Position numbers and translations under genes: made by a program. 32,000 nt of DNA. Source: Pyrodictium abyssi (lineage in GTDB: Archaea; Thermoproteota; Thermoprotei_A; Sulfolobales; Pyrodictiaceae). Shown here piece by piece: positions 1,582 to 29,139 of this stretch. The notes below the pieces were generated by a model. It searched no databases and had not been told where the DNA came from. It saw nothing but the letters and a program-made list of their open reading frames with translations. Each line of letters opens with the position of its first letter. Position 1 is the stretch's first letter. Location: contig NZ_AP028907.1 of NCBI RefSeq assembly GCF_036323395.1, positions 420,001 to 452,000 of the forward strand, in the 5' to 3' direction.

Positions 1582-2187
1582 TTGCCGCTCATATCGTTTA
1601 TAGGGGTCCACGGCTCCGGGAAGACCTCCACAGCCCGGCTACTAGCCCGGCTCTACCCGGGCTGCTACCTCTACCACGAGCTAGAAGCCATAGACGAGGC
1701 CCACGGGCTACCCCCGGCCGCGCGCCAGCTCCTCTTCCTCTCCAGGTTCGTGGAGGGCTACCTCCAGGCATACAGAGAGTCCCAGAGCACCGGGAAAACA
1801 GTGGTCATGGACAGCCACCCCGTACTAGTGCCGGTCTATAGCCGGTGGTGGCTCCGGGGCCACGCAGAGGACACAGTAGAGGCCATGGAGAAGCTGCTCC
1901 AGGCGCTCCCGCCCGCAGACCTACTCGTCTACATAAGGGCAGGAGACCCCAAGGAGATAGCGCGCCGCATCCTCGCGCGGGGCCGCGCTGTGGCCAGGGA
2001 GGAGGCAGACCCCGAGTACATAGAGTTTATAGACCGCGAAGCCTCGAGGATCGTCGAGGAGTACGGGGCCAGCCTAGCCAGGAGGATAATGGTCCTCGAC
2101 GCCCAGGAGCCCCTCGAGGAGAAGGCCCGCCGGGTACACACGGAGCACGCCAGGCTAGCCGGAGGCACACAGGCTTGCAGCTGCTAG
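1582..2187 (+). CDS. P-loop nucleoside/nucleotide kinase-like protein (deoxynucleoside-kinase-like)
   Basis: TTG start at 1582. Walker A motif GVHGSGKT at residues 8-15. The C-terminal segment ARRILARGRAVAREEADPEYIEFI resembles the dNK/dCK lid (RGR..E....Y). The stop at 2185-2187 overlaps the proposed nrdG start. Confidence 0.6.
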   Translation: MPLISFIGVHGSGKTSTARLLARLYPGCYLYHELEAIDEAHGLPPAARQLLFLSRFVEGYLQAYRESQSTGKTVVMDSHPVLVPVYSRWWLRGHAEDTVEAMEKLLQALPPADLLVYIRAGDPKEIARRILARGRAVAREEADPEYIEFIDREASRIVEEYGASLARRIMVLDAQEPLEEKARRVHTEHARLAGGTQACSC

Positions 2188-2930
2188 CCGGGGGCTGGAA
2201 AGCCCCGAGCCTAGTAGACGTCCGGGGCCGCGCCACGTTCACCCTCTGGCTCTGCGGCTGCAACCTACGCTGCCCCTTCTGCCACAACTGGCGCCTAGCA
2301 GAAGCAGCCCCCGAAGCCTGCCGCCCAGTGGAGCTCGACACAGTCCTGAAGGCGCTCCACGGAGCCGCTAGGCTAGTAGACATGCTCCACGTGACCGGCG
2401 GCGAGCCAGCGCTACAGGCCAGGGCTCTGGAGAGGCTGCTAGAGGAGAGCAGGGGCCTAGGCCTAGGTAACAGCATCAACACCAACTGCACTCTCCCCCA
2501 CCTGCTCCAGCCCCTCCTAGACCGCGGCCTCGTAGACCACGTAGCCACCGACCTCAAGACACCCTTCCACACGCTAGCCGGGCTACGGGGAGGGACAGCA
2601 GCCCGGCTCCAGGAAAGGTTCCTCGAATGCCTCAACGCGCTGGCGAGCCACGGGGTGGAGGTCGAGCTACGCATACCGGTGCCCCGCGAGATACCAGGCT
2701 ACACAAGGCTGCTCGAGGAGAGCCTCAGAGAGGCCGCAGAGGCGCTCCACGGCACCAAGTGGTACGTGGTCGTGAACCCGCTCCAGGGCCGCCCCCTCGT
2801 AAACCCCCGCGACGAGGAGTGGTGCGCCAAGCACTGCAGCCCAGACCAGCAGCTCGTCGACATGGTAGTGGAGACGGCGAGGAGGCACGCCACGAGAGTG
2901 TACGTCAACTGGGTGCTCTCCACGGTCTAG
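2175..2930 (+). CDS. nrdG: anaerobic ribonucleotide reductase activating protein (radical SAM)
   Basis: Radical-SAM cluster motif CGCNLRCPFCHN about 25 residues after an in-frame TTG at 2175, plus the VTGGEPAL SAM-binding motif. The ORF-track start at 1845 runs through the kinase gene in another frame and is Arg/Pro-rich there, so it was rejected. The exact start is uncertain. Confidence 0.85.
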   Translation: MQLLAGGWKAPSLVDVRGRATFTLWLCGCNLRCPFCHNWRLAEAAPEACRPVELDTVLKALHGAARLVDMLHVTGGEPALQARALERLLEESRGLGLGNSINTNCTLPHLLQPLLDRGLVDHVATDLKTPFHTLAGLRGGTAARLQERFLECLNALASHGVEVELRIPVPREIPGYTRLLEESLREAAEALHGTKWYVVVNPLQGRPLVNPRDEEWCAKHCSPDQQLVDMVVETARRHATRVYVNWVLSTV

Positions 2931-3016
2931 GCGGGGGCTGCCCCTCCGGGAAACCTTCTTAACCCCTCACCGGGGTGTTAGAGACCCTACACATGGCAAG
3001 ACCCGGAGCATTGGGC

Positions 3017-3095
3017 GCGGCGGTCGTCTAGCCTGGACTAGGACGCCGGCCTGCCAAGCCGGCGATCCCGGGTTCAAATCCCGGCCGCCGCACCA
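3017..3095 (+). tRNA. tRNA-Gly(GCC): tRNA-Gly, anticodon GCC, with encoded CCA
   Basis: Hand-folded cloverleaf. Acceptor GCGGCGG/CCGCCGC. D stem GTCT/GGAC. Anticodon stem CCGGC/GCCGG with loop CTGCCAA. T arm CCGGG-TTCAAAT-CCCGG. Discriminator A, then CCA at 3093-3095. Confidence 0.9.
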
Positions 3096-3180
3096 CAAAT
3101 CCTCTCCTCTCCACTGCTCCACGCACCGTTCTGTCTGCGCATCTCTCGCTGTTACACACGTGGGTGTGCTGGCTGTCCTG

Positions 3181-3444
3181 TTAGCCTGCTGCAGCTGTGG
3201 TGTTGCCGCGAGGCTGGCTTTGTAAATCCTCCTTGGCCTTGGCTATGCATTGGGCGAGGTTCTCTATGAGGAAGCTGTATATGCGGCATGTCGTCACGTA
3301 TCTGACTGCGTCGGGGTCTGCGCGCATAGTGTAGGAAAAGGACCTGGACCCGTCAGTCCTCAGTATGCCTACAAATACCACACTATCCGGGACCGTGGTG
3401 GTTACGCCATCCGGGCTGTAGCGTAATATAGTGCTTTGCGCCAA
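3181..3444 (-). CDS. hypothetical protein; may be the frameshifted continuation of the upstream ORF
   Basis: 87-codon ORF with a TTG start, overlapping the end of ORF 3402..3956 by 43 nt in another frame. No recognisable motifs. Lower-GC segment. Confidence 0.3.
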   Translation of the reverse strand: MAQSTILRYSPDGVTTTVPDSVVFVGILRTDGSRSFSYTMRADPDAVRYVTTCRIYSFLIENLAQCIAKAKEDLQSQPRGNTTAAAG

Positions 3445-3956
3445 GTATGTTTAGCAGCCTTTGCCTGGCTATCTCGTTGGGGACTGTTCTGGCTACTATG
3501 GCTGATATCCTGGAGGCATATACTCCTCTTAGGCCTTACAAACGCGACGCCTTTTCCCGACTCGAACGCCATCTTCAGCAGCTCTACAACAGGTCGTGCC
3601 AGTGTATCGTTGGCTAGTATACTGTCGGCTTTAAGCAGTATCGCGGCTGCATCCTTGTATGTAGACATGATTTCTGGCGTTGGTGCTGGCACTGTTTTAA
3701 CCGTGAAGCCTGCGCCGCTGAGTATCTCGGCAAGGCGTGTATCGTTAAAGCCGACGAGAACTATGGTAGAGCCGTAGATGGTTCTAGCGACTAGTGCTGG
3801 TATAGTGTATATGTTGCAGCTGGTTGTTGTAGTGTAGCCTGCTTCTCTGTGCCACGCTTCGTGCCCATGTAGGCTCAGCAGATATGTTGAGAGAGCGGTG
3901 ATAGCCAGTAGGCCCAGTATAGCGGCGGCTCGTGGTATAGCGGGTGTGGCTGTCAT
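3402..3956 (-). CDS. hypothetical membrane-anchored/secreted protein
   Basis: 184-codon ORF. N-terminal hydrophobic segment (AAAILGLLAITALSTYLLSL) follows a short charged start. The composition looks coding. No family recognised. Confidence 0.5.
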   Translation of the reverse strand: MTATPAIPRAAAILGLLAITALSTYLLSLHGHEAWHREAGYTTTTSCNIYTIPALVARTIYGSTIVLVGFNDTRLAEILSGAGFTVKTVPAPTPEIMSTYKDAAAILLKADSILANDTLARPVVELLKMAFESGKGVAFVRPKRSICLQDISHSSQNSPQRDSQAKAAKHTWRKALYYATARMA

Positions 3957-4164
3957 AGTATCCCCGGGGCTCGCTGCAGTAGCTTACATCCTTGGCTAAA
4001 TGCAGTGTGTAGGCTTTGTGCAAGGGGATGGATGGCTCTGGCCTCTCCCCGGTGGGGTGGCGCGCAGGATATTACCCGGTAGGCTGTGACACCCGTGTTT
4101 CTGAGCGAGACCGGAGCCCCTAGCCTCTACATGGGCTCCGACGCCCGCTCGGGGAGTAAGCCTA

Positions 4165-4497
4165 ATGGATTTGGGGGCTCTTGCGGCGAGCCTAGTGGAG
4201 CTATACATAGAGAACCCGTTGTTCACAATAGCTGTGGACGCTGTGGCGGCTATAGGCGTTCTCGCGCTAAGCGAGCTACTGCTCCGTAGTCTGCTGCGGG
4301 ACCGCCTCCGTGGCTGGATGATAATAGCTGCTAGGACGGTCCTGGCCTCTGTCCTGGTCCTGGTGCACGAGTACGTCAAGGAGGGCTACTTCTTCAAGGT
4401 CAGCGACCTCTTCGTACTCCCTCCTAAGAGCCATGAGTCGTTCCTGGCCTTCCTCGTGTTCCTGAGCATGGTTCTACGCCGTGCACTGATTATGTGA
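4165..4497 (+). CDS. small polytopic membrane protein, hypothetical
   Basis: ATG start. 110 aa with about three hydrophobic spans (FTIAVDAVAAIGVLALS, MIIAARTVLASVLVLV, FLAFLVFLSMVL). First gene of a same-strand run with short gaps or overlaps. Confidence 0.5.
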   Translation: MDLGALAASLVELYIENPLFTIAVDAVAAIGVLALSELLLRSLLRDRLRGWMIIAARTVLASVLVLVHEYVKEGYFFKVSDLFVLPPKSHESFLAFLVFLSMVLRRALIM

Positions 4498-4676
4498 GGG
4501 CCCAGGAGCCTTCTCGGCAACGAGGCCTACTACTTGTTGAAGCGTTTAATGTATTAGCTGCTATACGTACATCCTACCCGATACTGGGCTGTGTGGGAGC
4601 CCTTACTAAGGCTCCAGGGCTGTGCAGCTCCTGTAGCCTTTGGCACGCTCATGCTGGGTTAGGGGTGCTGCATGGT

Positions 4677-5126
4677 ATGCGGTATCGGGGTATAAGCGAG
4701 CTGGTATCGGCGTCACTGCTAGCGCTGATAGTTGTGGTTATAGGCGGGATAATCGTGGCGAAGATGTTGAGCGAGCTAAACGCTAGGATAAACCAGATAT
4801 CTGAGAACCTTGTGGAGGCTGAGATGAGCCTTAGCCAGGCGGTTGACATAGCTATAGCATACATAGATGGGAACGGGAATCTGCAGCTGGTTGTAGCTAC
4901 TGGCGACTTCCCGGTGAAGCTTCACGGGCTCTACGTCAACTCGACCCTGGCAAGCGGCTGTACTGTCTCTCTGACGACTGGGGAGACAGGGGCGCTTGAG
5001 GGTTTTGATGTACCAGCCTACTCGCTCGCAAGGATAACGTGTAGCTTGGGACCGGGCGCCGTGGCGGCGGATGTGAGGCTAATCTACGAGGGTGGAGAGG
5101 TACACGCCTATGCCCAGAGGATTTAG
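4677..5126 (+). CDS. type IV pilin-like protein with class III (prepilin-type) signal peptide
   Basis: Internal ATG at 4677 gives MRYRG/ISELVSASLLALIVVVIGGIIV. This is a short basic leader, Gly at -1, then about 20 hydrophobic residues, the pattern of archaeal PibD/FlaK substrates. The 61 residues upstream in the ORF track look non-coding. The end overlaps the next gene by 17 nt. Confidence 0.6.
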   Translation: MRYRGISELVSASLLALIVVVIGGIIVAKMLSELNARINQISENLVEAEMSLSQAVDIAIAYIDGNGNLQLVVATGDFPVKLHGLYVNSTLASGCTVSLTTGETGALEGFDVPAYSLARITCSLGPGAVAADVRLIYEGGEVHAYAQRI

Positions 5127-7908
5127 ATCTGTGGGCAGCCTAGCCGGTATGGTGTTCCTAGCCGTAATGATATTCATGGCTATAGGCTTCGCGTTCGTAG
5201 TGCTCTCTGCATTCGACGAGTACAGCTCGGTAATCCTAGCTATAATGGGCGAGCGCGCCTCCATGCTGGGCGTGACTAGCAGTATAACCGGCTGGTGGAT
5301 GATAGGTGGCAGCGATCTCCTGATACACCTCGAGACTAGCTACCCCAAGTCGTTAACTCTGACGGGAATGGCTGTGCTCTGGGACGACGGCACAGTGACG
5401 ATAATGGACCAGGGTAACGCGACGCTGTACAACGTGGTCATGGTGGTGGGGAAGCCCGACGGGACAACCTATACGGTGTCTAGGCTCCCCGTGGTCCTCG
5501 GCCCCGGCTACCAGGTTAACATAACGCTGGCAGGTTATGCCTCGGGCCGCGAGCCAGTCTCGATATCAGCGAGCCTCAGCGCAAGCCCAGCGGTAGCGGT
5601 AGTGCCGATAAGAAGGTACGTGCCCACCTACACGGTCCCCGTCAACGTTACCGTGACGCCCACGCCAAGCTACAATTACACCCCAGCTTTGGTACAGCTA
5701 CTTCCTATGGTCTTCTCCGGCTACACTACAGCTGTGAGAGTCTACCAGGCGACACTGGGCCCAGAGGAGGCGTTCAGCCCGGCGGGCTACAGCGTCGTCT
5801 ACGGTGTCCGGGTCTCCGGCGACCTAAGCAGCCTATCCGCTAGGGATGGGAACACGCTGAACATACAGTCGCAGAGCTACGTGGTGTGCGAGGCGTACAG
5901 CGGGTGGCGCTACTACCGCGAGGTGGAGATAGTCAACAACAACCCGTACAGCTACCAGGATATACAGGTGAAGATAACGCTAAGCCGTGACAACTTCGAC
6001 TTCACCAAGGCGAACCCCGATGGCAGTGACGTGCGTGTGCTCGCCGAGGACTGTACCCCGCTACCCTACTGGATAGAGAAGTGGGACCCCGACAGGGGCA
6101 AGGCAGTGATATGGGTCAGGATACCATCGATAGAGGCCAACGGCAGAGTAAAGATAATGCTCGTCTACGGCAACCCGTCCGCTACGAGCCACGACCCACA
6201 GTACTACGGGCTCGACAAGGTGATGGAGCGGCTACCGGCCGAGGACGGCCCAGGCTACACGATATACTACCAGGAGTGGGTTATGCCGGTAAGCGGCCTC
6301 ATAGGCGGCGGCACGGCTATGGGCTGGCACGCCGACGACGGGGCCTGGAGGTACACGCTCCCGTTCAGCTTCCCGTTCTACAGTAAGACGCTCACACAGG
6401 TGTACGTGTGCAGCAACGGCTTCATATCGGAGAAGCGCATAACAGACTTCTCCGACAGCCTCTACGAGCTCCGGTCAAGGCTGATGATAGCCCCGTTCTG
6501 GGAGGACCTAATGACGTGGAGGCCATACGACATATACATACGGACCGACTACAGAGACGAGTACGGAAGAGCCGTAGTCATACGCTGGTACACCGACTTC
6601 TACTACCGCTACGGCGTAGCAAACTTCGAGCTAGTCCTCTACGAGAACGGCCTCATAAGGTTCAACTACGGGAGGATAGACGGCCGGAGCTACGACCGGC
6701 CGACAGTAGGCCTATCCCTCGGCGACCGCAAGCACTACACGGTCTCGACCTACAACGACAAGACCGCCGATAATCTCAGCAACGCGGCCTCGGTGATGTT
6801 CTGGCCCCGCAAGAAGCCCCAGACTGAGTTCACAGCAACAGTTGGCCAGGAGAAGCTGTTCTCCGTCTACAGGGCTGGCGTCGAGATAAGCTACCCCCTG
6901 GAAGGCATGGCGTCTATAACGGGGCTCGAGGTCTACGCTAACGACCCTGGCACACCCTACAGCTACGAGGTATTGATAATCGCTGGCGGCGTCCCCGTCT
7001 ACACGGTCTCCGGCGAGGACCAGAGCGGTCCGCTCAGCATCAGCCTATCTGGGCTAAGAATACCAGTCGACGGCCCAGTAACGGTCCGAGTGGTCGTGAC
7101 ACGGTTCTCCGGGTTCCAGCTACAGCTGGACCAGGTAAGGCTAACCGTGAACCGGATAACCATGACCGGCAGCAGGATAGCAATAGCGAGCTCCAATACG
7201 AGCACACTACTCCTATACGACCCGGCCACCGGGGCGTCGGCCCAGATAGACCTGGCTACGGGAGGCTTCCCAGCCACCGGCGTGACGCTCCTAGCAATGG
7301 ACTCCATGGTGCGCGGCGTGTCCACCTGGCTATGGGTGGTACGCGGCGACCTCGCGGTCCCCTACGACCTGTTCAACGAGACATGGGTGGCTGACCACGC
7401 TATAACGCTGGCAACAGCTGTGGCAGAGGGAGGCTTCGTCGCCTCCAATGGTACGCACCTCTACGTGTACCCTGGCGGCGGCGCGAGCCGGGTGTACGTC
7501 TACAGCATAGAGACCGGCGTAGTGATGAACACGATACAGCTGCCAGTAGCGCCCGGCACATACACCTCGACAGCCCAGGCGGGCATGGCGCTCTACATAC
7601 ACACGGGCGAGGCGGGCAGGCTCCTAGCACTAAACCTCGTCACCGGCGAGGTAACAGAGCTGGGCACAACGCCTAGCATTTACCCCGTGGGCATGGCCTA
7701 TGACCCGGACCGCGGGAGGCTCTGGGTAGTCCTGCGCGGCGGCGGAGTAGAGTACTACGACCTCTCGGCCGGCCGCTGGGAGGCCTACTCGGTGGCGATG
7801 CCCTACTACCCGCTGAACCCCGGCGACCGGCTCGTGTATATAGATAATAGGCTCTACCATGTAAGAAACGATGGGACTAGTAGCCTGCTAGAGCTACAGC
7901 TCGGCTAG
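5110..7908 (+). CDS. large surface protein: pilin-like N-terminus, DUF2341-like domain, NIDO-like segment, beta-propeller-like C-terminus
   Basis: ATG at 5110 gives MPRGFRSVGSLAGMVFLAVMIFMAIGFAFVVL. The segment YYREVEIVNNNPYSYQDIQVKITL...DGSDVRVL...LPYWIEKWDPDRGKAVIWVRIPSI...IMLVYGNP matches the DUF2341 pattern. Many N-x-S/T sequons. N- and C-terminal regions are paralogous to the next gene. Confidence 0.8.
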   Translation: MPRGFRSVGSLAGMVFLAVMIFMAIGFAFVVLSAFDEYSSVILAIMGERASMLGVTSSITGWWMIGGSDLLIHLETSYPKSLTLTGMAVLWDDGTVTIMDQGNATLYNVVMVVGKPDGTTYTVSRLPVVLGPGYQVNITLAGYASGREPVSISASLSASPAVAVVPIRRYVPTYTVPVNVTVTPTPSYNYTPALVQLLPMVFSGYTTAVRVYQATLGPEEAFSPAGYSVVYGVRVSGDLSSLSARDGNTLNIQSQSYVVCEAYSGWRYYREVEIVNNNPYSYQDIQVKITLSRDNFDFTKANPDGSDVRVLAEDCTPLPYWIEKWDPDRGKAVIWVRIPSIEANGRVKIMLVYGNPSATSHDPQYYGLDKVMERLPAEDGPGYTIYYQEWVMPVSGLIGGGTAMGWHADDGAWRYTLPFSFPFYSKTLTQVYVCSNGFISEKRITDFSDSLYELRSRLMIAPFWEDLMTWRPYDIYIRTDYRDEYGRAVVIRWYTDFYYRYGVANFELVLYENGLIRFNYGRIDGRSYDRPTVGLSLGDRKHYTVSTYNDKTADNLSNAASVMFWPRKKPQTEFTATVGQEKLFSVYRAGVEISYPLEGMASITGLEVYANDPGTPYSYEVLIIAGGVPVYTVSGEDQSGPLSISLSGLRIPVDGPVTVRVVVTRFSGFQLQLDQVRLTVNRITMTGSRIAIASSNTSTLLLYDPATGASAQIDLATGGFPATGVTLLAMDSMVRGVSTWLWVVRGDLAVPYDLFNETWVADHAITLATAVAEGGFVASNGTHLYVYPGGGASRVYVYSIETGVVMNTIQLPVAPGTYTSTAQAGMALYIHTGEAGRLLALNLVTGEVTELGTTPSIYPVGMAYDPDRGRLWVVLRGGGVEYYDLSAGRWEAYSVAMPYYPLNPGDRLVYIDNRLYHVRNDGTSSLLELQLG

Positions 7909-7951
7909 CCAGTAGCTCGGCGCCCGCCGCCCCACCGGAGGCTGGCAGGAA

Positions 7952-9349
7952 GTGGCCCAGCGTGGCGCCGGTAGACGGGCAGTCGGCACGCTAGTAGGCG
8001 CAGCTATAGCCGCGCTCATACTCCTAATGGTGATAGGCGTCTTCATGGTCCTATCTGGCTTCCTTAGCAACTATAGCAAGATGGTTACAAGGCTCTCCAA
8101 GGAGCGTGCACAGTCCCCAGTAATAGCGAGCGCCGTGGACGCCGTGTGGAGCGTCAGCGGCTCCGACATAACCGTACAGCTAGAGTCGCGGTACAGCCGG
8201 ACCATACTCCTCACCGGCGTCGCGATACTGTGGAGTGACTCGAGCCTAACAATAGTAGACCGGTGGAACAGCACCAGCAACGTCGACATAGTGGTCGAGA
8301 CGCCCGACGGTAACACGTACACGGTACAGGGGTTCCCCGTGGGCATAGGGCCGGGTTATAGGGTAAACGTGACGCTCACCGGCTACGCTAGCGGCCGGCA
8401 GCCAGTCACCGTGCAGCCGATAGTAAGCGGCAGCCCATCCGTGATAGCAGTGCCCGCGGCAGCGGCTAGCCGGTCCCCCGCGCTCTTCCTGCTCAACACG
8501 ACAGCCCTAGACTGCACAGTCACATGGCTAGGCGGGGCCACGGTTAACGGCGCGCCCATAACAGCGCTCATCGTGGCCCCCGGGGGCTCGGCCAGGATAG
8601 ACATCTACAACGCCAGTGGTGCAGCCGTGGAGTACCTCTACAGCATAGACGCCTACACAGTGTTCAACTGCAGCGCAGACATCGCCTACGACACAGCAAC
8701 CCAGGCACTATACCTAGTCAACACGAGCGGCGTATACCAGCGCACACTAGACCAGGCAGACCAGTGGCAGCTCCTCAACACTGACTGTGCCGCGCAGGGA
8801 CCGGGCGCACGCGCTGAGGTCCTAGCGACGGCTAACGGCAGGTACCTGCTGGTTATACGCGGAGGCGGGAGCAGCTACTGCATCATACAGCTTGACACAC
8901 CCGGAGGCCAGCGCAGAAACACCCAGCTGGGCATAACCGGGACGATGACCGCTGGCGGCCGCACGCTCGAAGCTGGCAGCTACACTGTCTCAGCGGCGTG
9001 CGGCGATACAGCCTACATACTACTCTACGACGCCGAGAACAACGAGCCCTACATAGCCTCGTTCAACGCCACCAAGGGGGCCACCGGAGCCTCAACCGGA
9101 TGGGCAATAGTAGCCCGCGCCCCCAGCCGCTACAGCACCGGGATGGCCTGCACCGGCACAGAGCTATGGATACTCTACGAGCGCGGCAGCATCTACACGG
9201 TAGACACGGAGATAGCAGCGATAAGCTATGTGCCAGTAGAGCTGCCCTTCTACCCCTGGGGGCCAGGAGACCGGCTAGAATACACGGACAACACCCTGGT
9301 ATTCGCCCGGGGCGACGGCACAGCAGAACTCTGGCTAATACCAGCCTAG
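7952..9349 (+). CDS. surface protein, shorter paralog of 5110..7908 (pilin-like N-terminus, beta-propeller-like C-terminus)
   Basis: GTG start. RRAVGTLVGAAIAALILLMVIGVFMVL parallels FRSVGSLAGMVFLAVMIFMAIGFAFVVL. The blocks GSD(I/L).(V/I)(Q/H)LE(S/T).Y...LTG(V/M)A(I/V)LW.D, PDG(N/T)TYTV and GPGY.VN(V/I)TL(T/A)GYASGR.PV are shared. C-terminal FYPWGPGDRLEYTDNTL matches YYPLNPGDRLVYIDNRL. Confidence 0.8.
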   Translation: MAQRGAGRRAVGTLVGAAIAALILLMVIGVFMVLSGFLSNYSKMVTRLSKERAQSPVIASAVDAVWSVSGSDITVQLESRYSRTILLTGVAILWSDSSLTIVDRWNSTSNVDIVVETPDGNTYTVQGFPVGIGPGYRVNVTLTGYASGRQPVTVQPIVSGSPSVIAVPAAAASRSPALFLLNTTALDCTVTWLGGATVNGAPITALIVAPGGSARIDIYNASGAAVEYLYSIDAYTVFNCSADIAYDTATQALYLVNTSGVYQRTLDQADQWQLLNTDCAAQGPGARAEVLATANGRYLLVIRGGGSSYCIIQLDTPGGQRRNTQLGITGTMTAGGRTLEAGSYTVSAACGDTAYILLYDAENNEPYIASFNATKGATGASTGWAIVARAPSRYSTGMACTGTELWILYERGSIYTVDTEIAAISYVPVELPFYPWGPGDRLEYTDNTLVFARGDGTAELWLIPA

Positions 9350-9469
9350 CAAGCCCAGCAAGACAGCCACACCGGCAAAGGGGATGAAACACCTAATAAC
9401 CCCTGGGCTGGGTCTAGAAGACTCCATGGCCGCGGCCGGCCACGTAGCAGGAAGCAGAGCTGTGCGGGT

Positions 9470-9547
9470 GCCGCGGTAGTATAGCCCGGCCAAGTATGCG
9501 GGCCTTTCAAGCCCGTGACCCGGGTTCAAATCCCGGCCGCGGCACCA
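9470..9547 (+). tRNA. tRNA-Glu(UUC): tRNA-Glu, anticodon TTC, with encoded CCA
   Basis: Hand-folded cloverleaf. Acceptor GCCGCGG/CCGCGGC. D stem GTAT/GTAT (two G-U pairs). Anticodon stem CGGGC/GCCCG with loop CTTTCAA. 4-nt variable loop. T arm CCGGG-TTCAAAT-CCCGG. Discriminator A, then CCA. Confidence 0.9.
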
Positions 9548-9673
9548 AACCATTGCACCAAACCATTCTTTACTGTCTATACGGCTCCTTGCCAGCCAGC
9601 TATGAGGTGTGGCCACATATTACACATAAAGCCTTGGAGTCAATGGTGTAAGTCTATGCGGTGTCCTTGAGCC

Positions 9674-10153
9674 TTACTGTCTTGTGTCTAGAAGCCTGAG
9701 TCTCTGTAGTGTTTGGCGTAGGGTTTCTCCTGGCAGGGGCTGGGCTATCCTGACGCCTTTGGCGTTTAGGGCCTCTAAGGCGTGGCGGCCTAGCTTGCCA
9801 GCGACGACGATGTCTACGTTGTTGTCTATTACCCAGCGGGCTATCGCGACCCCGACGCCGCCCCGCATCTCGGCGAGAGGGTTGGGTACTGTTTCGAGGC
9901 CTGTGATGCGGCCGCCGGCTATGTCTACTAGTGCGAGGTAGGGTGCGTGTGTGAGGCCCCATGATACTCTGCTGTCGAGGCCTAGGGGCTCCTCTAGGCC
10001 TGCGCATACGCGTACCGTGTTGCCTAGCTTGGGCTTTCTTGGTAGTGTCTTGGCGGCCTCTATTGCCCTGAGTATTACCTCTGGGTTGCGACCGTGGCCT
10101 TTGCCGTGGCCGTGTATATGGTGCGCGTGATGGGGCTCTGTCATCCTGTGCAC
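9674..10153 (-). CDS. NifB/NifX-family (dinitrogenase FeMo-cofactor-binding-like domain) protein with His-rich N-terminus
   Basis: SRVSWGLTHAPYLALVDIAGGRITGLETVPNP...GGVGVAIARWVIDNNVDIVVAGKLGRHALEALNAKGVRI follows the Nitro_FeMo-Co domain pattern (HFG.a..f.i.d......ve...n.....gG.G...a..l...gvd.vi.g..G..a...L...Gi.v). The N-terminus is MHRMTEPHHAHHIHGHGKGHG. Confidence 0.75.
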   Translation of the reverse strand: MHRMTEPHHAHHIHGHGKGHGRNPEVILRAIEAAKTLPRKPKLGNTVRVCAGLEEPLGLDSRVSWGLTHAPYLALVDIAGGRITGLETVPNPLAEMRGGVGVAIARWVIDNNVDIVVAGKLGRHALEALNAKGVRIAQPLPGETLRQTLQRLRLLDTRQ

Positions 10154-10439
10154 CCGTATGCTGGTGGCGTGTAGCCGGGTGTTGGAGGCTCGGTAAAATA
10201 GCTCCTAGCCGTCTGCGCTGCTGCGGCGCTGGCCTGGCTTGGCTTTATGCGTGCTGCATCTGTTTCGTGTCTACTGTGCTGCGGCGTCTACATTGTCTCC
10301 TTGCGGTGTACCCCTAGTACTGGTCTGGTACTGGTGTCGCGGCCCCTGGTGTTGGCTGCTGTTTTTCGTTAGATGTATGTCTAACCATGAGTCTTTAATC
10401 CTCATAACATGGCATTATCTTATCTGGGTGAACAGCTTT

Positions 10440-12332
10440 ATGAAAGTATGGGAGGTAGCTAGGAAGCCGCGTGTCGTGGTTACACCGGACGCGCCGGCGA
10501 CTGTTGTCCGCGCGCTGCTGCGGGATAACGAGGAGCCCATAGCGGTGGTGGTGGACAGCGAGAAGAACATGAAGCTGCAGGGCTACGTCACCTGGAGGGA
10601 GGTCATACAGATAACTAGCCACTACTCAAACCTGCGCGCTAAGGACATTGCCCTGGACTGGCCAGTAGCATACAAGGAGGATGACGTAGAGGAAGTAGTC
10701 AAGAGGATGGAGGAGGAGAAGGTCTACGCAGTGCCGGTCCTCGACTCCAAGGACAACCCAGTAGTCGTAGGTGTAGTCAGCATCGCGGACATAGTTAAGG
10801 CGCTGATGGCCGCCGGCTACGAGCCCATCGCGGAGACCGTAGCGGAGGTCATGACCACTGAGGGTCTCGAGGAGTACATAACCACACAGGAGGAGAGAGT
10901 CAACAGGGTATGGAGCGACCTAGTATACCACGGCAAGCTTGGCAAAGTGGTGGTGAGGAGCAAGGAGGAACCGATACCCGTCGGCATAGTGTCCCTACGC
11001 GAGTTCGTGGAGACGGGTCGCTGGTTCTTCCACCGTGAGAGCGAGCGCGGGCTCAAGACGGTGGCAAAGGTACGCACCATAATGCTCCGCGGTGCGCCAG
11101 CCGCTACACCGGAGACGCCGATACAGTACGCTGCCAAGATCATGGCTGAGAATGACTTCCCAGTACTCCCTGTCATAGACGAGGAGACCGGCAAGCTCGT
11201 CGGCGTGCTAACGATATACGATGTAGCGAGAGCCTACCTAGAGGGCGCTAAGCCGGGCCGCGTCAAGCCAACCAAGAAGGCAGCACTGCCGATAGAGGTG
11301 AAGCCGGAGGAGCGCGTCACCTACGCTACAGCCGAGACTGTGCTCCAGCAAGTGCTGGTAGCCAAGCCCCAGGTAGAGACACTCATAGGGCTTAGCGCCG
11401 CCGACATCGCCCGGCCCGAGCTCCCGGCAGTCACAGTGAACGACACCGTTGAGCACGCCCGCCGCATGATGCTACGCTACCACACCAACTACCTCCTAGT
11501 GGTGGACGAGAAGGGAGAGATAGTAGGCGTGGTCAGCAAGTGGAGCATGCTCCGCGCTATAGGCCTCAAGGGCCCGATCTGGAAGAGGAGGGTGCACGAC
11601 CGCTACTTCATAGACTACGTGATGGACACAGAGATACCCAGAGTCAAGGCCGACGACAGTATCGAGCAGGTAGCGCTCCGCATGGTGGAGGCCAAGGCCG
11701 AGGTAGCGATAGTAGTGGACGACAAAGGCCGCCCAATCGGCTTCATAACGAAGGACGACCTAGTGGATGCCTATGCTAGGCTACAGGCAGGCCGCGCCAA
11801 GGTAGAGAACGTTATGACGCCCGGCAGGATAGGCATTGTGCACCCGCACCACAGCCTCTACCACGCTGTGAAGAAGATGCAGACATTCTACCTAGACGCT
11901 CTCACGGTCTACGACGGCTCAAGGATAATAGGCGTGGTCTCTGCGAACAGGCTACCCTTCGTAGCCTACGAGGACGCCGTTACTGGTGTCAAGAGCCGCC
12001 GCCTGGTATGGGTCCGTAAGCTCGTACGCGGTGCAGCTAAGAAGGGACGCTACGTGAAGGTGACGCCACTGCTAGTGATGGACGCTACTGTGCCGCTACG
12101 CGACGTATACGTGAAGACCACCGACGACGTGGTAAAGGCTATAGAGCTGATGCGCGAGCACAACGTGGACGGCGTGCCAGTCGTCGACGAGGAGGGCCGT
12201 GTAGCCGGCGTAGTCACGAAGACCGACATAGTGAGAGAGCTAGCGAGAACAGCAAGGCTGCGCATAGAGCGCGGCGAGACCGTAAAGGTGGAGAAGAAGG
12301 AGAAGCCCGAAGCAAAACCCAAGGCCCAGTAA
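10440..12332 (+). CDS. multi-CBS-domain protein (about eight CBS repeats) with Lys/Glu-rich tail
   Basis: ATG at 10440 (MKVWEVARKP) lies downstream of an AT-rich stretch. The 67 residues upstream in the ORF track are Cys/Trp-rich and unlikely to be coding. Repeated CBS signatures (..vtv.pd.tv.ea...m.e....alpVvD..gk.vGivt..Dl) recur throughout. The tail is VKVEKKEKPEAKPKAQ. Confidence 0.85.
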   Translation: MKVWEVARKPRVVVTPDAPATVVRALLRDNEEPIAVVVDSEKNMKLQGYVTWREVIQITSHYSNLRAKDIALDWPVAYKEDDVEEVVKRMEEEKVYAVPVLDSKDNPVVVGVVSIADIVKALMAAGYEPIAETVAEVMTTEGLEEYITTQEERVNRVWSDLVYHGKLGKVVVRSKEEPIPVGIVSLREFVETGRWFFHRESERGLKTVAKVRTIMLRGAPAATPETPIQYAAKIMAENDFPVLPVIDEETGKLVGVLTIYDVARAYLEGAKPGRVKPTKKAALPIEVKPEERVTYATAETVLQQVLVAKPQVETLIGLSAADIARPELPAVTVNDTVEHARRMMLRYHTNYLLVVDEKGEIVGVVSKWSMLRAIGLKGPIWKRRVHDRYFIDYVMDTEIPRVKADDSIEQVALRMVEAKAEVAIVVDDKGRPIGFITKDDLVDAYARLQAGRAKVENVMTPGRIGIVHPHHSLYHAVKKMQTFYLDALTVYDGSRIIGVVSANRLPFVAYEDAVTGVKSRRLVWVRKLVRGAAKKGRYVKVTPLLVMDATVPLRDVYVKTTDDVVKAIELMREHNVDGVPVVDEEGRVAGVVTKTDIVRELARTARLRIERGETVKVEKKEKPEAKPKAQ

Positions 12333-12570
12333 AACGCCCGCTCTACCCCGGTTTCTTCACTCCCTCCCTCGTAGACACTGGCTCCTAGGAGAGGCTCCTC
12401 GGCCCTCGGCGCTCCTGCCTCGCCTCTGTGCTGGTCGGGGGTGAGCGGAACCACCGACACTGAAGCCCCCGTGGGCCCACGGGGGCGTGTTGACGCCCAG
12501 CGATGGCGACCCCCTGCCGTCATCCCCGCGGGGATTGGGGCGCAGAAGGGCCTAGGAGGTGGCAACGGCT

Positions 12571-13320
12571 ATGACTGCACGGTACGCTGTACTGCTGGCT
12601 GCAGGCCTCGGGACGAGGCTGGGCGGCCCTAAGCCGCTAGTCCGGCTACATGGCCGGCCCCTCGCATGGTACCCTCTGAGCGTGCTACACCTGGTGGGCG
12701 CTTCTGAGGCATGCATAGTGACGCGCAGCGAGCTCGCCAGCGAGCTCCGCGGGTTGGCTGAGAGCATCTACGGCTCTGGTTCAGTGCACGTCGTTGTCAA
12801 CAGCGAGCCCTGGAGGGAGAACGGCTACAGCCTCGTGCTTGCGTCCCGGCTCTGCCCATGCCCCGGGGACGAGCCCGTATACGTGTCCATGAGCGACCAC
12901 GTGTACTCGCCGCTAGTCCCGGCCAGGCTGGAGGCCCCGCGGTGGGCTCTCTACAGTATTGCTGGCGACCGTGAGCCCGTCTATGTTGACGCGGACGAGG
13001 CCACAAAGATACTCGCGGTGGGTGGTATAGGCTACGCTGTGGGTAAGGGGCTCAGGCTCTGGAGCCACGTAGACATGGGGGTCCACGCGGCGCGGCTCGG
13101 CGCTATACGGGAGACAGCCGAGCTGGTCATGGCGGGGAGCCAGGGCGTGCTGGGGCTCAATATGCTGACTGACACGATTGCCCGCCTGGGCGGGCTACAC
13201 GTCTCCGAGGCCTCGGGGCTCCCCTGGACCGAGATAGACACGCCCATGGACCTCGAGGAGGCGGAGAAGGGTCCGAGGAGGAGGGTGGTAGAGCATGTCC
13301 TCTCGTGGTTCCGCAGCTAG
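12571..13320 (+). CDS. nucleotidyltransferase, probable CTP:L-myo-inositol-1-phosphate cytidylyltransferase (IPCT)
   Basis: ATG at 12571 is preceded by GGAGGTG. The N-terminus YAVLLAAGLGTRLGGPKPL is the NTP-transferase G-rich loop. It overlaps the start of a CDP-alcohol phosphatidyltransferase gene, the IPCT/DIPPS arrangement. The ORF-track start is 12559. Confidence 0.7.
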   Translation: MTARYAVLLAAGLGTRLGGPKPLVRLHGRPLAWYPLSVLHLVGASEACIVTRSELASELRGLAESIYGSGSVHVVVNSEPWRENGYSLVLASRLCPCPGDEPVYVSMSDHVYSPLVPARLEAPRWALYSIAGDREPVYVDADEATKILAVGGIGYAVGKGLRLWSHVDMGVHAARLGAIRETAELVMAGSQGVLGLNMLTDTIARLGGLHVSEASGLPWTEIDTPMDLEEAEKGPRRRVVEHVLSWFRS

Positions 13321-14671: not shown

Positions 14672-14679
14672 TTTATCTA
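14672..14679 (+). promoter_or_regulatory. TATA-like box upstream of purP
   Basis: TTTATCTA sits about 40 nt upstream of the TTG at 14719. An inverted repeat CCCGTG-cc-CACGGG (14692-14705) lies between the box and the start. Confidence 0.4.
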
Positions 14680-14694
14680 TCCCCGCGCGCCCCC

Positions 14695-15837
14695 GTGCCC
14701 ACGGGTGTGGGCGCTCCCTTGCCCATCAGCCACAGCGAGGTGCGCGAGATCCTCCAGCGCTACGACCCGGCCCGTATAACCATAGGCGTCCTGGCGAGCC
14801 ACTCGGCGCTAGACGTGCTCCGTGGCGCGAAGAAGCTGGGGTTCCGCACGCTGGCGGTAGCGCGGCGGGGCCGCGACCTAGCCTACCGCATGTTCCCCGT
14901 AGTCGACGAGCTCATGGTGCTCGACGATTACCGCGACCTCCTCCGGGACGAGGTCCAGGAGGAGCTCCGGCGCCGCAACGTGGTCTTCGTGCCTAACAGG
15001 AGCTTCGCCGTCTACGTGGGCTACGACGGCATAGAGAACGAGTTCCTAGTACCGGTGTTCGGCAACAGGTTTCTGCTGCGCTGGGAGGAGCGTGTCGGCG
15101 AGAAGAACTACTACCGGCTCCTAGACGAGGCCGGGATTCCCCGGCCGAGGGTATACGAGAGGCTCGAGGACGCAGAGGGCCCGGTCATGGTCAAGCTTCC
15201 GGAGGCGCGGCGCCGTGTAGAGCGCGCATTCTTCATAGCCCGTGACGGCCGCGCTGCCGCGGAGAAGATAAGGGAGCTCATGGAGAAGGGTATAATTGAC
15301 GAGGAGAGTCTAAAAGCCATGAGCGTTGAGGAGTATGTTGACGGCGCCCACTTCAACCTAAACTTCTTCCAGAGCCCGATCTACGGTAGACTCGAGCTGC
15401 ACAGCATCGACCGGAGGCTACAGACCAATATAGACGACCTCAACAGGCTCCCCGCGTGGGTGCAAGCGGGCCTTGAGGGCGCAGTAGAGCCGCGCATGAT
15501 AGAGATAGGCCACATACCCGTCACGATAAGGGAGAGCATGCTCCACAAGGTGTTCGAGCTCGGCCTACGCTTCGTAGAAGCAGCCGCCAAGCTGGAGCCC
15601 CCCGGCGTAATAGGCCCCTTCACCCTGCAGGCTGTGGCTACACCGGGGCTAGGCCTCGTGGTCTACGATATAGCGCCCCGGATAGGCGGCGGCACCAACG
15701 CCGTAATGGCGTGGGGCGGGCAGTACAGTGGCCTCTACTTCCCGGAGCCGCTCAGCCTAGGCGAGAGGATAGCCCGCGAGCTGCACGAGGCCCTAAGGAG
15801 GGATGGGCTCGAAGGGCTCGCCGGGCTTGTTACCTAG
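14695..15837 (+). CDS. purP: 5-formaminoimidazole-4-carboxamide ribonucleotide (FAICAR) synthetase
   Basis: ILQRYDPARITIGVLASHSALDVLRGAKKLGFRT is the PurP N-terminal signature (..tlgSHSAL.il.GAk.eGf.t), and an ATP-grasp-like body follows. The true start is probably the in-frame GTG at 14707 or the TTG at 14719 (MPISHSEV...), given the TATA-like box at 14672. Confidence 0.85.
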   Translation: MPTGVGAPLPISHSEVREILQRYDPARITIGVLASHSALDVLRGAKKLGFRTLAVARRGRDLAYRMFPVVDELMVLDDYRDLLRDEVQEELRRRNVVFVPNRSFAVYVGYDGIENEFLVPVFGNRFLLRWEERVGEKNYYRLLDEAGIPRPRVYERLEDAEGPVMVKLPEARRRVERAFFIARDGRAAAEKIRELMEKGIIDEESLKAMSVEEYVDGAHFNLNFFQSPIYGRLELHSIDRRLQTNIDDLNRLPAWVQAGLEGAVEPRMIEIGHIPVTIRESMLHKVFELGLRFVEAAAKLEPPGVIGPFTLQAVATPGLGLVVYDIAPRIGGGTNAVMAWGGQYSGLYFPEPLSLGERIARELHEALRRDGLEGLAGLVT

Positions 15838-19033: not shown

Positions 19034-19819
19034 CTATTCTTCATATTTAAACATATTGTTTAATGAGCTATAACGGGTGTCTATAAGTAGTCCGCGGTCA
19101 GAGTAACAGCGCGCTATATCGCCTAGAGTTTCATAGTACTTCTCTGGGTCCACTTCCACGGCCTCGCCTCGGTCCACGTCCACCAGTATCACGGCGTGGA
19201 GCCGGGCGAGCTGGAGATCCTCAAGCGGCACAGGAGGGTCGCGGTAGTAGCGGTCTACGAGGCTCTTGAGCCTCTCCAGCTCCTCTACGCTCCGCGCCTT
19301 GGGCGGGCGGAGCAGTATGCTTGGCACGGGGGCGGCGTAGTATGGCGGCACGGCTAGCGCCATTTTCCCAGCGTACCTGCTGTAGCGGGCAATCTTCGCG
19401 GCTAGCCGGGCCCGTAGGTAGTCCAGCGGGTCGAGCGCGTTAGAGGGAGGCGTAAACCCGGTCTCAACCTCCACTACTAGGCCGTCACCGAGACGCTCAG
19501 CGTACACGTCACAGACCAGGCCGTCTGGCAGCCTGTGCTCCACGTCAACCCTCTCGTAGCCGCGGCGGATGAGATGCCCCGCCACCACCAGCTCCATAGC
19601 CGTGTGGTTTATCTTCACGAGGCCTCTCCGGTACATCTCCACGAGCTTCCCGACTAGGGGCTCAAGCTCCTCCCGGAGGCCCATGCGGCCCGCTATCTCC
19701 TGGAGGTCGCGCTGGAACCTCTCAACGCTGTGCTGGCTCGGCGCCACAGCGGGTAGCCCCTTGTGTAGATGGGGACGGGCACCCTGTAATTCAGCCCCTG
19801 CTACGGGGCAGCCTCTCAC
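19034..19819 (-). CDS. hypothetical protein with PD-(D/E)xK nuclease-like core
   Basis: 261-codon ORF with coding-like composition. ELVVAGHLIRRGYERVDVEH..DGLVCDVYAERLGDGLVVEVETG resembles the D...(D/E)xK-type core of restriction-endonuclease-fold proteins. No family recognised by eye. Confidence 0.6.
   Translation of the reverse strand: MRGCPVAGAELQGARPHLHKGLPAVAPSQHSVERFQRDLQEIAGRMGLREELEPLVGKLVEMYRRGLVKINHTAMELVVAGHLIRRGYERVDVEHRLPDGLVCDVYAERLGDGLVVEVETGFTPPSNALDPLDYLRARLAAKIARYSRYAGKMALAVPPYYAAPVPSILLRPPKARSVEELERLKSLVDRYYRDPPVPLEDLQLARLHAVILVDVDRGEAVEVDPEKYYETLGDIARCYSDRGLLIDTRYSSLNNMFKYEE
19044..19051 (-). promoter_or_regulatory. TATA box for the minus-strand ncRNA, embedded in the last codons of the upstream CDS
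   Basis: The minus strand reads TTTAAATA, matching the archaeal TTTAWATA consensus. Its centre is about 26-28 nt upstream of 19019, the first base of the 15-bp terminal helix. Confidence 0.5.
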
Positions 19820-19923
19820 TACTCGTAACGGTTTCCTCTAAGCAGCATGTTTTTATAGCCCTGGACTGCTAGCCTACTTCTACGCGCGAATACAATAACG
19901 CATGTTTCAATCCCTCCAGGGGT

Positions 19924-21123
19924 ATGAGAGCGTTGGCTACCCAGAAGAAGCGCGTAGTCGTGGTAGGCGGCGGCATAGCAGGTATGGCTGCTGCGCGCAC
20001 ACTCGTAGAGAGGATAGGCGACGCGGCAGAAGTCACAGTCGTAACCAAGGACCCCTTCTACATGGCTGGGCCTAGCCGCCCCCTACTGCTAACCGGGGAG
20101 CAGAGCTACGACCGCATAACCCGCGGCTACGAGGAGGCCGCGGCCAGCGGCATAAGGATAGTGTACGGCAACGTGACCCGCATCGACCCCGGCGAGCGCC
20201 GCGTATACTACACAGAATCCCCAACCAGGAGCTACACCTCGACCACCCAGAGCAGCCTAGACTACGACTACCTAATCCTAGCCCCCGGCGTAGTCTACGA
20301 TGGCTCGAGCATCGAGGGCTACAGGGAGCACTGGCACCGCACAGCTAGCGTCTACGAGCCCGGCCGCGTAGACGTGCTACGCAGCCGCATCTGGAGCCAG
20401 AACAAGGGCACAGTAGTAGTGTACGCTCCGCCCATGCCCTACCGCTGTGCTCCAGCTCCCACAGAGACTGCTCTAATAATAGATGCTGTCCTGCGCCACC
20501 GCGGAGTACGTAATAGCTTCAGCATAGTACATGTGGATGCAAACCAGAAGACACAGCCACCGGTGATAGCAGATATAGTGAAGAATATCTACGATGAAGC
20601 AGGGATCGAACTCATAACGGGTAGAAAAATAACTGAGATAGACGATAAATCGGTGGTCCTGGAGGATGGAGAACGCATAGAATACACGATCCTGGCGCTG
20701 CTTGAGCCGAACCGCGCTCCACGCTTCATAGCCGAGGCAGGGCTCGGCCAGGACTGGATAGAGGTGAAGACACCCGAGAAGCCCCGCACACCAAGCTACG
20801 ACGACATACTCGCGGCGGGCGACGCCGCTAAGCTGCCTTTCCCCAAGAACCAGGAGATAGCCTACGAGAGCGCCCTCTACGCAGCCAACACGATAATAGA
20901 GGAACTGGGCGGCGAGCCAGCGAGCGTACAGTACGCCTTCCTCGGCTGGGTGTATATGGGCAACCTCCAGGGTCGGCTAGAGACGCTGAGCATCCAGTTC
21001 GGGCTAAACTTCACCACGAAGCCGCCGAAGGCCAGCAAGGATGCCACGCCTAAGCGCGACTACACGCTCCAGAAGGACCGCTGGGAGCAGAGCTACCTCA
21101 ACCGGCTCTTCCACCCCAAGTAG
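19924..21123 (+). CDS. FAD-dependent pyridine nucleotide-disulfide oxidoreductase, sulfide:quinone oxidoreductase-like
   Basis: N-terminal Rossmann motif VVVVGGGIAGMAAA. The PYRCAPAPTETALIID segment resembles the SQR/FCSD P.kCpgAP.E motif. A second dinucleotide-fold region ends in AAGDAA. Confidence 0.7.
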   Translation: MRALATQKKRVVVVGGGIAGMAAARTLVERIGDAAEVTVVTKDPFYMAGPSRPLLLTGEQSYDRITRGYEEAAASGIRIVYGNVTRIDPGERRVYYTESPTRSYTSTTQSSLDYDYLILAPGVVYDGSSIEGYREHWHRTASVYEPGRVDVLRSRIWSQNKGTVVVYAPPMPYRCAPAPTETALIIDAVLRHRGVRNSFSIVHVDANQKTQPPVIADIVKNIYDEAGIELITGRKITEIDDKSVVLEDGERIEYTILALLEPNRAPRFIAEAGLGQDWIEVKTPEKPRTPSYDDILAAGDAAKLPFPKNQEIAYESALYAANTIIEELGGEPASVQYAFLGWVYMGNLQGRLETLSIQFGLNFTTKPPKASKDATPKRDYTLQKDRWEQSYLNRLFHPK

Positions 21124-21260
21124 CCATCGCCGCGCCTCTCTTTTTACGGCCCCCGGGGGCCGGAGGAGCGGCCGTAGTCCTCTTATACCCGGAGCTAGGC
21201 CGCGGGGTCTTGGCCCACGTGTATCCCACCTAGCGTCCTGGCCGGGGTGACGGGGTATGG

Positions 21261-28981: not shown

Positions 28982-28989
28982 TTTATATA
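28982..28989 (+). promoter_or_regulatory. consensus TATA box about 150 nt upstream of paralog C
   Basis: TTTATATA. The predicted transcript start near 29012 implies a leader of about 125 nt containing the hairpins GGAGAGTC...GACTCTCC (29029-29070) and CCCCCGG-GGCT-CCGGGGG. Confidence 0.45.
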
Positions 28990-29139
28990 ATCAGGTGAAA
29001 ACCATAGTACCCCGGCGGCCGGGGGAGAGTCCAGCCTAGAGAGTGCCAGACGAGATGACGCTGACTCTCCACGCGGGCTACTGGCGAGGACGCATCGTGG
29101 CCCGGACTTATCCCCCGGGGCTCCGGGGGTGCGTAGGCC

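Follow-up and report, generated by a model that had tools for sequence, protein, structure and literature searches.

We analysed a 32-kb window of Pyrodictium abyssi in which three consecutive plus-strand genes, lying between a tRNA-Gly and a tRNA-Glu gene, very probably encode pilin-type proteins with class III signals that belong to a type IV filament system. The genes are here called B (PABY_04570, 4677-5126, a small pilin of 149 amino acids), C (PABY_04580, 5110-7908, a modular pilin-like protein of 932 amino acids) and D (PABY_04590, 7952-9349, 465 amino acids, with a pilin module, a short linker and a beta-propeller). Judged from sequence and predicted structures, their products are probably accessory or minor subunits, or tip adhesin subunits, of an archaeal type IV pilus. 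All results on the locus are computational. The computed support consists of the signal motif and its conservation, a pilin-like fold, the domain architecture, the pairing of B with C, and the linkage of this pair to pilus genes in other archaea. An earlier note on this DNA had proposed that the pilin-like proteins are tip adhesins or minor pilins of an uncharacterised filament, a proposal which motif, fold and operon linkage elsewhere now support. In the current annotation, PABY_04550 to PABY_04590 are called hypothetical or DUF2341 proteins and nothing else; gene C is 100% identical to the annotated P. abyssi DUF2341 domain-containing protein. The family formed by B and C is unannotated and we found no description of it in the literature searched, although the principle underlying it is already known.

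The three proteins share an N-terminus of the class III type, in which a basic leader ending in R-G, R-S or R-A is followed by about 20 hydrophobic residues. The predicted signal of B reads MRYRG/ISELVSASLLALIVVVIGG, with the mature protein starting at ISELV..., and the leaders of C and D read MPRGFRS/VGSLAG... and ..GRRA/VGTLVG..., respectively. A crude FlaFind-like pattern, applied to every open reading frame (ORF) of at least 60 amino acids on both strands of the 32 kb, matched B, C, D and one further ORF of 216 amino acids at 23890-24540 on the minus strand. This ORF, whose N-terminus is MCRACRS/MGNSVVVAGLAAVVFSLAAIVLL, had no Pfam match and no similarity to the B or C families.

The signal pattern is conserved well beyond P. 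abyssi. Every orthologue of B and C carries [KR][GAS], followed by [IVL][SGA][STGE] and a hydrophobic stretch. Residues 1-170 of C served as the query of an exhaustive profile search which, counted in clusters with representatives at 50% identity, gave 143 clusters at E ≤ 0.001 (82 at E ≤ 1e-10), and most matches started within the first 14 residues. A strict cleavage-type pattern, [KR][G/A/S/C] right before the hydrophobic stretch, was present in 117 of the 143 representatives. Position -1 of these 117 was occupied by Gly (66), Ala (36), Ser (13) or Cys (2) and by nothing else, and the median leader length in the C-module family was 10 amino acids. A small residue conserved in this way at position -1 would be expected of a peptidase site rather than of a plain anchor, and the enzyme predicted to cleave the leaders of B, C and D would be a prepilin peptidase. 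The class III signal that the earlier note had recognised on the 149-amino-acid protein was thus borne out, both by the pattern and by the alignment described below.

Gene B had no Pfam match. Its family profile matches the type IV pilin of Pyrobaculum calidifontis, 8fk7_A, at E = 6.6e-5 over residues 1-106. In this alignment, the R-G site of the B family falls on K-G of 8fk7_A, one Cys is aligned, and the invariant N88-x-T falls on N85-A-T; Asn85 is the glycosylated residue in the 8fk7 pilus structure (PMC10334743). B itself has the conserved sequon as N88-S-T, together with two Cys. The alignment runs through the helix into the head, which suggests, at the level of sequence, a lollipop fold for B. 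Comparison of the B-family profile with that of the N-terminal module of C aligned only 26 N-terminal columns, at 70% probability, and homology of the B and C heads is therefore not claimed.

The N-terminal module of C (5110-5619, residues 1-170) is predicted by AlphaFold2 to consist of a 51-residue helix (residues 7-58) and a beta-sandwich (residues 59-169), i.e. a lollipop fold in the predicted model. The mean predicted local distance difference test (pLDDT) score was 82.7 for the full protein and 87.5 for the first 172 residues modelled alone. Foldseek searches with full-length C were swamped by generic beta-propellers, and the module was therefore modelled and searched separately. Its two best matches in the PDB were both archaeal type IV pili, namely 8fk7_A (E = 9.9e-4, template-modelling (TM) score 0.51) and then 8q30, the Aap pilus of S. 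acidocaldarius. Furthermore, the module profile matched the archaellins 5o4u and 7ofq at E = 0.007-0.009, and three of 96 remote relatives matched Pfam Arch_flagellin.

Following the module, C has a linker rich in Thr, Pro and Val (5623-5685, residues 172-192) that is predicted to be disordered (pLDDT < 50) and contains the sequons N179 and N189. Beyond it lies a series of domains, beginning with all-beta domains of which DUF2341 is one. The DUF2341 core (6019-6192, residues 304-361) matches PF10102 at E = 9e-20, with 71.4 bits against a cutoff of 23.4; otherwise, Pfam and NCBIfam scans of B, C and D returned only sub-threshold BasA, NqrD and OppC noise. A NIDO-like domain at 6349-6696 (about residues 414-529) gives a weak Pfam NIDO match, and its closest solved relative is the gliding-motility adhesin RemA (8gl6_D; phmmer, E = 6.2e-5). 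A further beta-sandwich separates this domain from a C-terminal beta-propeller at 7207-7905 (about residues 700-931), which ends in the motif PGDRL..Y.DN.LY and has profile matches to Kelch and YncE and Foldseek matches to YncE, WD40 and BamB-type propellers at E ~1e-8. The invariant columns of the C family cluster at residues 266-568, and conservation within the family peaks in the region of DUF2341 and NIDO, where dozens of aromatic and Gly positions are invariant, which suggests that this region offers a surface for specific binding. In other members of the C-module family, CARDB, SpaA-like, SdrD_B, H-lectin or Fn3-like domains take the place of these, and the N-terminal module thus behaves as a carrier of varied surface domains.

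Gene D is a shortened paralogue of C. The two proteins are 45% identical over the first 163 residues (E = 4e-39) and 28% identical over the last 172 residues (E = 3e-12), the latter including the PGDRL motif in PYYPLNPGDRLVYIDNRLY of C and PFYPWGPGDRLEYTDNTLV of D. The shared N-terminal module and C-terminal motif had been pointed out by the earlier note and were thus found again in the alignments. D has a pilin module at 7952-8461 (residues 1-170) and a beta-propeller at 8567-9340 (residues 206-463), and an end-to-end alignment with a profile built from the C-terminus of the C family (E = 2e-28) spans residues 206-463. Since both ends align to C, D corresponds to the N-terminal module and the C-terminal domain of C minus about 520 central residues; it lacks both DUF2341, for which no Pfam match was found, and NIDO. 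D is confined to Pyrodictium, its relatives being limited to CF15_07485 of P. occultum and a metagenomic sequence of 90% identity, and it is absent from Pyrofollis, in which tRNA-Glu directly follows C. Both C and D contain eight sequons, corresponding to 0.86 and 1.72 per 100 amino acids, respectively, compared with 0-0.5 in cytoplasmic neighbours. Both are therefore enriched, but the description of the two as rich in sequons is fair for D only. In silico, C and D each combine what defines a modular pilin: a class III signal with a pilin module, a linker, and a domain foreign to pilus biology.

We next consider conservation and genomic context. Full-length orthologues of C, with about 900 amino acids and 31-67% identity, occur in P. 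occultum, Pyrofollis, many metagenome-assembled genomes (MAGs) of Desulfurococcales, Nezhaarchaeales, Geothermarchaeum and others. Hidden Markov models (HMMs) of the small protein and of the C module were run on all fetched loci. At every locus with the upstream region present, the gene directly before the C-type gene was of the B type; both lay on one strand and, in most cases, overlapped. In P. abyssi, B and C overlap by 17 nt and C and D are separated by 43 nt, in agreement with the same-strand genes with overlaps or short gaps that had been reported between the two tRNA genes.

In several lineages, the pair is linked to genes for pilus assembly. The loci L010 and L092 hold on one strand one or two canonical pilin genes, the B-like gene, the C-like gene, a T2SSE gene (E ~1e-35), TadC-like genes and a KaiC-like ATPase gene, and L093 has the same gene order up to T2SSE, just after which the contig ends. 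The pair of L009 faces, in convergent orientation, two T2SSF genes, one T2SSE gene and a pilin gene whose product is homologous to 8fk7 over its full length (E = 1.9e-25). In L017, from Candidatus Geothermarchaeum rappei, the pair lies at 8545-12682 with a large protein of 1251 amino acids, and is flanked by T2SSE and Pilin_N genes (2025-3902 and 7816-8355, both on the minus strand) and by a complete archaellum operon, which extends from archaellin (14674-15306) through ArlJ (19765-21375); three type IV filament gene sets are thus present within 20 kb. In sum, the pair is linked to T2SSE in four lineages (L009, L010, L092 and L093) and to TadC-like genes in L009, L010 and L092. The linkage is within one operon in three lineages (L010, L092 and L093) and includes KaiC in two (L010 and L092), and L017 adds a fifth lineage, with T2SSE nearby. 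Because there is only a handful of such ATPase genes per genome, we estimate that chance adjacency in about five of some 11 informative lineages is very unlikely. The computational checks that the earlier note had suggested, of the cleavage site, of the structure of the shared N-terminal module and of linkage to a pilus operon, each spoke for its proposal, the last of them through loci of other lineages. Since related archaea hold the gene pair in type IV pilus operons, the P. abyssi proteins are most likely adhesin-carrying minor pilus subunits. Moreover, these operons hold a separate pilin that is much closer to 8fk7 and, where it precedes the pair in the same operon, is the likely major subunit, which makes extra minor pilins, and not the backbone, the best reading of B and C.

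These results, taken together with analogies to established type IV filament biology and to bacterial modular pilins (PMC8179133, PMC9934059), suggest a model for how the proteins might act. The N-terminal hydrophobic helix would insert each of B, C and D in the membrane, a prepilin peptidase of the PibD/FlaK type would cut the basic leader after R-G in B, R-S in C and R-A in D, and the helix of about 50 residues in each protein could then pack with the helices of other pilins. B, which appears translationally coupled to C, would be the small partner pilin and would likely complete or stabilise the tip. C would be the modular pilin, whose flexible Thr/Pro linker carries about 740 residues of putative adhesin-type domains (DUF2341, the NIDO-like domain, the beta-sandwich and the beta-propeller), a bulk that should fit only the filament tip or a short stalk, and D would display the propeller alone. 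Adhesion is the presumed function of C and D. The backbone would be formed by a separate 8fk7-like major pilin and the motor by a T2SSE ATPase with a TadC platform, in many cases joined by a KaiC-like ATPase; for P. abyssi, backbone pilin and motor are both presumed to be encoded elsewhere and to act in trans.

Several observations weigh against a role of these proteins in a pilus. The putative location of C at a tip and the proposed complex of B and C are argued by analogy only. The matches between the C module and pilins are modest (Foldseek E ~1e-3, TM 0.42-0.51; HMM E ~0.007), curated pilin and archaellin models (Pfam Pilin_N PF07790 and Arch_flagellin PF01917; NCBIfam) miss B, C and D at E ≤ 0.1, and the Ser at position -1 of C is seen less often at prepilin cleavage sites. 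There is no assembly gene within 10 kb of the pair in P. abyssi, P. occultum, Pyrofollis and several MAGs, and the neighbourhoods in Pyrodictiaceae and in these MAGs differ. For the 32-kb window, this agrees with what the earlier note had stated: none of the larger ORFs had a Pfam match to T2SSE, T2SSF or Peptidase_A24, a Pfam search revealed no prepilin peptidase gene, and tblastn of the window with ATPase and TadC proteins from related loci gave no match. Finally, in a cryo-electron microscopy (cryo-EM) study of AV2 cultures of P. abyssi, cannulae and AbpX bundles were all that was reported, with no type IV pilus (bioRxiv 10.1101/2024.12.30.630787).

Because of this cryo-EM report, a version without an extended filament is kept alive. 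In this explanation, which we regard as possible if unlikely, PibD-processed modules form a membrane-rooted stem, a short pseudopilus or stalk resembling the bindosome, that pushes the adhesin and propeller domains across the wide quasi-periplasm and surface layer (S-layer) of Pyrodictium. It would agree with the uncoupling of the pair from pilus operons in Pyrodictiaceae and several other lineages, with the tight coupling of B and C in a 1:1 style, which suits a defined complex, and with the presence of class III signals on non-filament surface proteins of Sulfolobus (PMC4858521). B also matches the model of the bindosome protein BasA (NCBIfam NF053669, E = 8e-4), but this match reaches only 19.7 bits against a cutoff of 230, and the operons linked to assembly machinery also hold a full-length homologue of a pilin that builds long filaments. 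A different possibility is that B is the major subunit of a pilus specific to Pyrodictiaceae, with C and D as its tip or minor subunits and the cluster as the structural half of a split system. In its favour, B resembles 8fk7, the solved major pilin, more than anything else in the window does, B-type and 8fk7-type pilins cross-match in HMM searches, and stand-alone major pilin genes are common in Crenarchaeota (PMC4858521). This reading is nevertheless very doubtful, given that complete operons have before the B-like gene a separate pilin far closer to 8fk7 (E = 1.9e-25 versus 6.6e-5), and that overlap and coupling with a gene for a 932-amino-acid protein would be unusual for a highly expressed major subunit.

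It is also conceivable, but highly improbable, that B, C and D are plain surface glycoproteins with uncleaved signal anchors, or membrane-anchored S-layer binders like ArlF and ArlG, in which the helix is a simple transmembrane anchor and pilus machinery is not needed. The failure of curated pilin models to match would be explained in this way, a beta-sandwich after a transmembrane helix is also the stator fold of ArlF and ArlG, both of which align well with 8fk7 (PMC10334743), and the pair in L017 adjoins an archaellum operon. Yet the strict retention of G, A or S after K/R before the hydrophobic stretch, across very divergent sequences, is hard to explain for an anchor, and the pair is found repeatedly inside T2SSE/TadC operons without archaellins. 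The idea that the cluster is cargo of a mobile element integrated between two tRNA genes is effectively refuted. The flanking genes, tRNA-Gly(GCC) at 3017-3095 and tRNA-Glu(UUC) at 9470-9547, both on the plus strand, are present as the earlier note had described; their 3' ends form a 29-nt direct repeat of 97% identity (3067-3095 and 9519-9547), and the G+C content (GC) is lower at 3000-7000. This repeat, however, is only the T-arm, acceptor and CCA of two intact and different tRNAs, and the same tRNAs flank the pair in P. occultum and Pyrofollis japonicus, where the order tRNA-Gly, small gene, large gene, tRNA-Glu is shared. The downstream synteny of housekeeping genes is also kept (CBS protein, nucleotidyltransferase, CDP-alcohol transferase, DUF445 and PurP), the pairs of distant lineages have no tRNA neighbours, and a Pfam search of the window found no integrase or other mobile-element gene. 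A mobile island was therefore rejected on synteny, the nature of the repeat and the lack of an integrase, and the tRNA genes are boundaries of conserved synteny in Pyrodictiaceae and not the scar of a mobile element.

Between the two tRNA genes there are four plus-strand ORFs, of which the first, ORF-A (PABY_04560, 4165-4497, 110 amino acids, hydrophobic), lies outside the conserved module. In P. abyssi, about 1.5 kb of extra DNA (3100-4670, GC 0.53-0.59) separates tRNA-Gly from the pilin gene, whereas in P. occultum and Pyrofollis the small pilin gene begins 150-190 nt from tRNA-Gly. This insertion, which is specific to the P. abyssi lineage, carries ORF-A and PABY_04550 (3402-3956, minus strand, 184 amino acids with an N-terminal hydrophobic segment). 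Searches by tblastn of P. occultum, Pyrofollis and the other fetched loci turned up no counterpart of either ORF; relatives of ORF-A with at least 90% identity were found on a few metagenomic contigs. Both ORFs were rejected as cluster members because orthologous loci lack a counterpart, and ORF-A is thus a lineage-specific neighbour. The proposed cluster of four genes is thereby reduced to B, C and D. The lower GC noted for its first part is real, at 0.53-0.60 over 3000 to about 7000 compared with 0.64-0.67 upstream, but it is a weak signal because the downstream CBS gene is equally low. No promoter element was conserved when the sequences preceding B were aligned between P. abyssi, P. occultum and Pyrofollis.

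Some features of the surroundings are of interest in their own right. Between tRNA-Glu and the CBS-domain gene, P. abyssi has a gene (9674-10153, minus strand) for a 159-amino-acid protein with a domain of the dinitrogenase FeMo-cofactor-binding type (PF02579, E = 1.9e-15). In P. occultum, the CBS gene follows about 260 nt after tRNA-Glu, and no gene of the PF02579 type is present, which is a second small difference at the same tRNA-bounded site. In Pyrofollis japonicus (L007), tRNA-Gly at 9318-9396 is on the strand opposite to the pilin pair, and in both Pyrodictium species it is on the same strand; this is a local inversion of the tRNA gene with its position kept. Further downstream in the window, a plus-strand gene at 29140-29859 encodes a protein of 239 amino acids that has a linker rich in Thr and a hydrophobic N-terminus. 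Over its last 120 residues it matches CanX, the cannula subunit of P. abyssi (9h8b, E = 7.4e-18), a DUF1102 tube protein (9bab, E = 1.4e-11) and CanA (7uii, E = 4.4e-8), and it probably belongs to the CanA-like paralogues that the cannulae paper mentions as scattered. The lowest GC of the window (0.48, 28501-29000) precedes this gene. A KaiC-like ATPase at 30688-31740 on the minus strand is split over three frames, with the Walker A motif GNPGTGKS, the KaiC core at 31134-31577 and the tail at 30688-31119, and is either a pseudogene or the result of sequencing errors. Its identity to the KaiC-like ATPase at the end of the L010 pilus operon is 32%. As a pilus component it was set aside and treated as unrelated, being in three frames, 21 kb away, on the other strand and with no ATPase or TadC gene nearby.

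In the literature searched we found no account of what occupies the tip of an archaeal type IV pilus or of how such pili attach to their targets. A concrete candidate for the tip is the B-C family, which is conserved widely, with Pyrodictium, Nezhaarchaeales and Geothermarchaeum among its hosts, and which couples a small pilin to a modular pilin of roughly 900 residues bearing putative lectin- or adhesin-type domains and a beta-propeller. For groups imaging the surface of P. abyssi, which is a model organism for cannulae, a third surface system would be of practical interest. One may go further and see in the pair a tip cassette of ancient origin, complete in itself, that serves the type IV pili of Thermoproteota. 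Its propeller adhesin, similar to PilY1, would be joined covalently to a pilin, with a small pilin dedicated to holding it, and in Pyrodictiaceae the cassette would have left its operon and been duplicated to give D. This broader proposal is speculative and distinctly unlikely as a whole; if true, archaeal type IV filaments would have their first defined tip complex. In Pyrodictiaceae, such a cassette could use a different carrier, e.g. a short stalk spanning the S-layer, which might tie cells to the matrix of cannulae and AbpX or to mineral surfaces, or might capture DNA via the YncE-like propeller.

Among known systems, the flagellar-like type IV pilus of P. calidifontis (8FK7; PMC10334743) is the best solved relative, both of B by sequence and of the C module by Foldseek. 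Features in common are a leader ending in K/R-G, a long N-terminal helix, an Ig-like head, and an aligned Cys and sequon of the glycosylated Asn. The P. calidifontis pilus locus includes an ATPase, TadC and a KaiC-like ATPase; the operons of L010 and L092 likewise have a KaiC-like ATPase, and L009 has a full-length 8fk7 homologue. However, its described 5.5-kb locus is too short for a C-type gene of 2.8 kb, B is a diverged paralogue and not an orthologue of the major pilin, and P. abyssi has no adjacent machinery. In Methanococcus, Epd-type pilus loci (arCOG03508) similarly encode large DUF2341 proteins together with archaeal pilins. Makarova et al. proposed DUF2341 proteins in Methanococcus pilus loci as tip adhesins (PMC4858521), and one such gene (MMJJ_08210) was repeatedly struck in a screen for loss of natural transformation (PMC10133366), which is pilus-dependent there. 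These loci belong to another phylum and another pilus type, and the architecture compared with that of C was DUF2341; what characterises the Thermoproteota family is that a pilin module, a NIDO-like domain and a propeller are combined, with a small pilin as an obligatory partner.

The same overall design is known from bacteria, where modular pilins and the PilA-PilC tip pair of Streptococcus sanguinis have been described (PMC8179133, PMC9934059). In bacterial modular pilins, too, a class III signal precedes a small pilin module to which a linker attaches a bulky functional module, and in S. sanguinis a small pilin partners a large lectin-bearing modular pilin, with the tip position modelled. 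This is analogy and not homology, as the bacterial proteins carry the N-methylation motif IPR012902, which is not applicable to archaea, and have other grafted domains. The survey of modular pilins searched only for this bacterial motif and did not mention archaea (PMC8179133), and the B-C family extends the idea to Archaea. The Sulfolobus bindosome (BasABC) is, like the present system, crenarchaeal, and combines small pilin-like proteins with large non-filament surface proteins bearing class III signals, with genes often unlinked from an ATPase; C and D differ from it in having a pilin-type beta-sandwich after the helix and not a solute-binding fold. Finally, PilY1/PilC tip adhesins have a C-terminal beta-propeller and variable adhesive N-terminal domains and are displayed at the pilus tip. 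At E ≤ 0.1, no Pfam match to the PilC/PilY1 propeller family (PF05567/IPR008707) was obtained, the propeller matches were to generic YncE, Kelch and WD40 types, and the likeness is one of functional analogy only. In addition, bacterial PilY1 is not a pilin and docks on minor pilins, whereas in the C/D family the putative propeller adhesin is covalently fused to the pilin module itself, most plainly in D.

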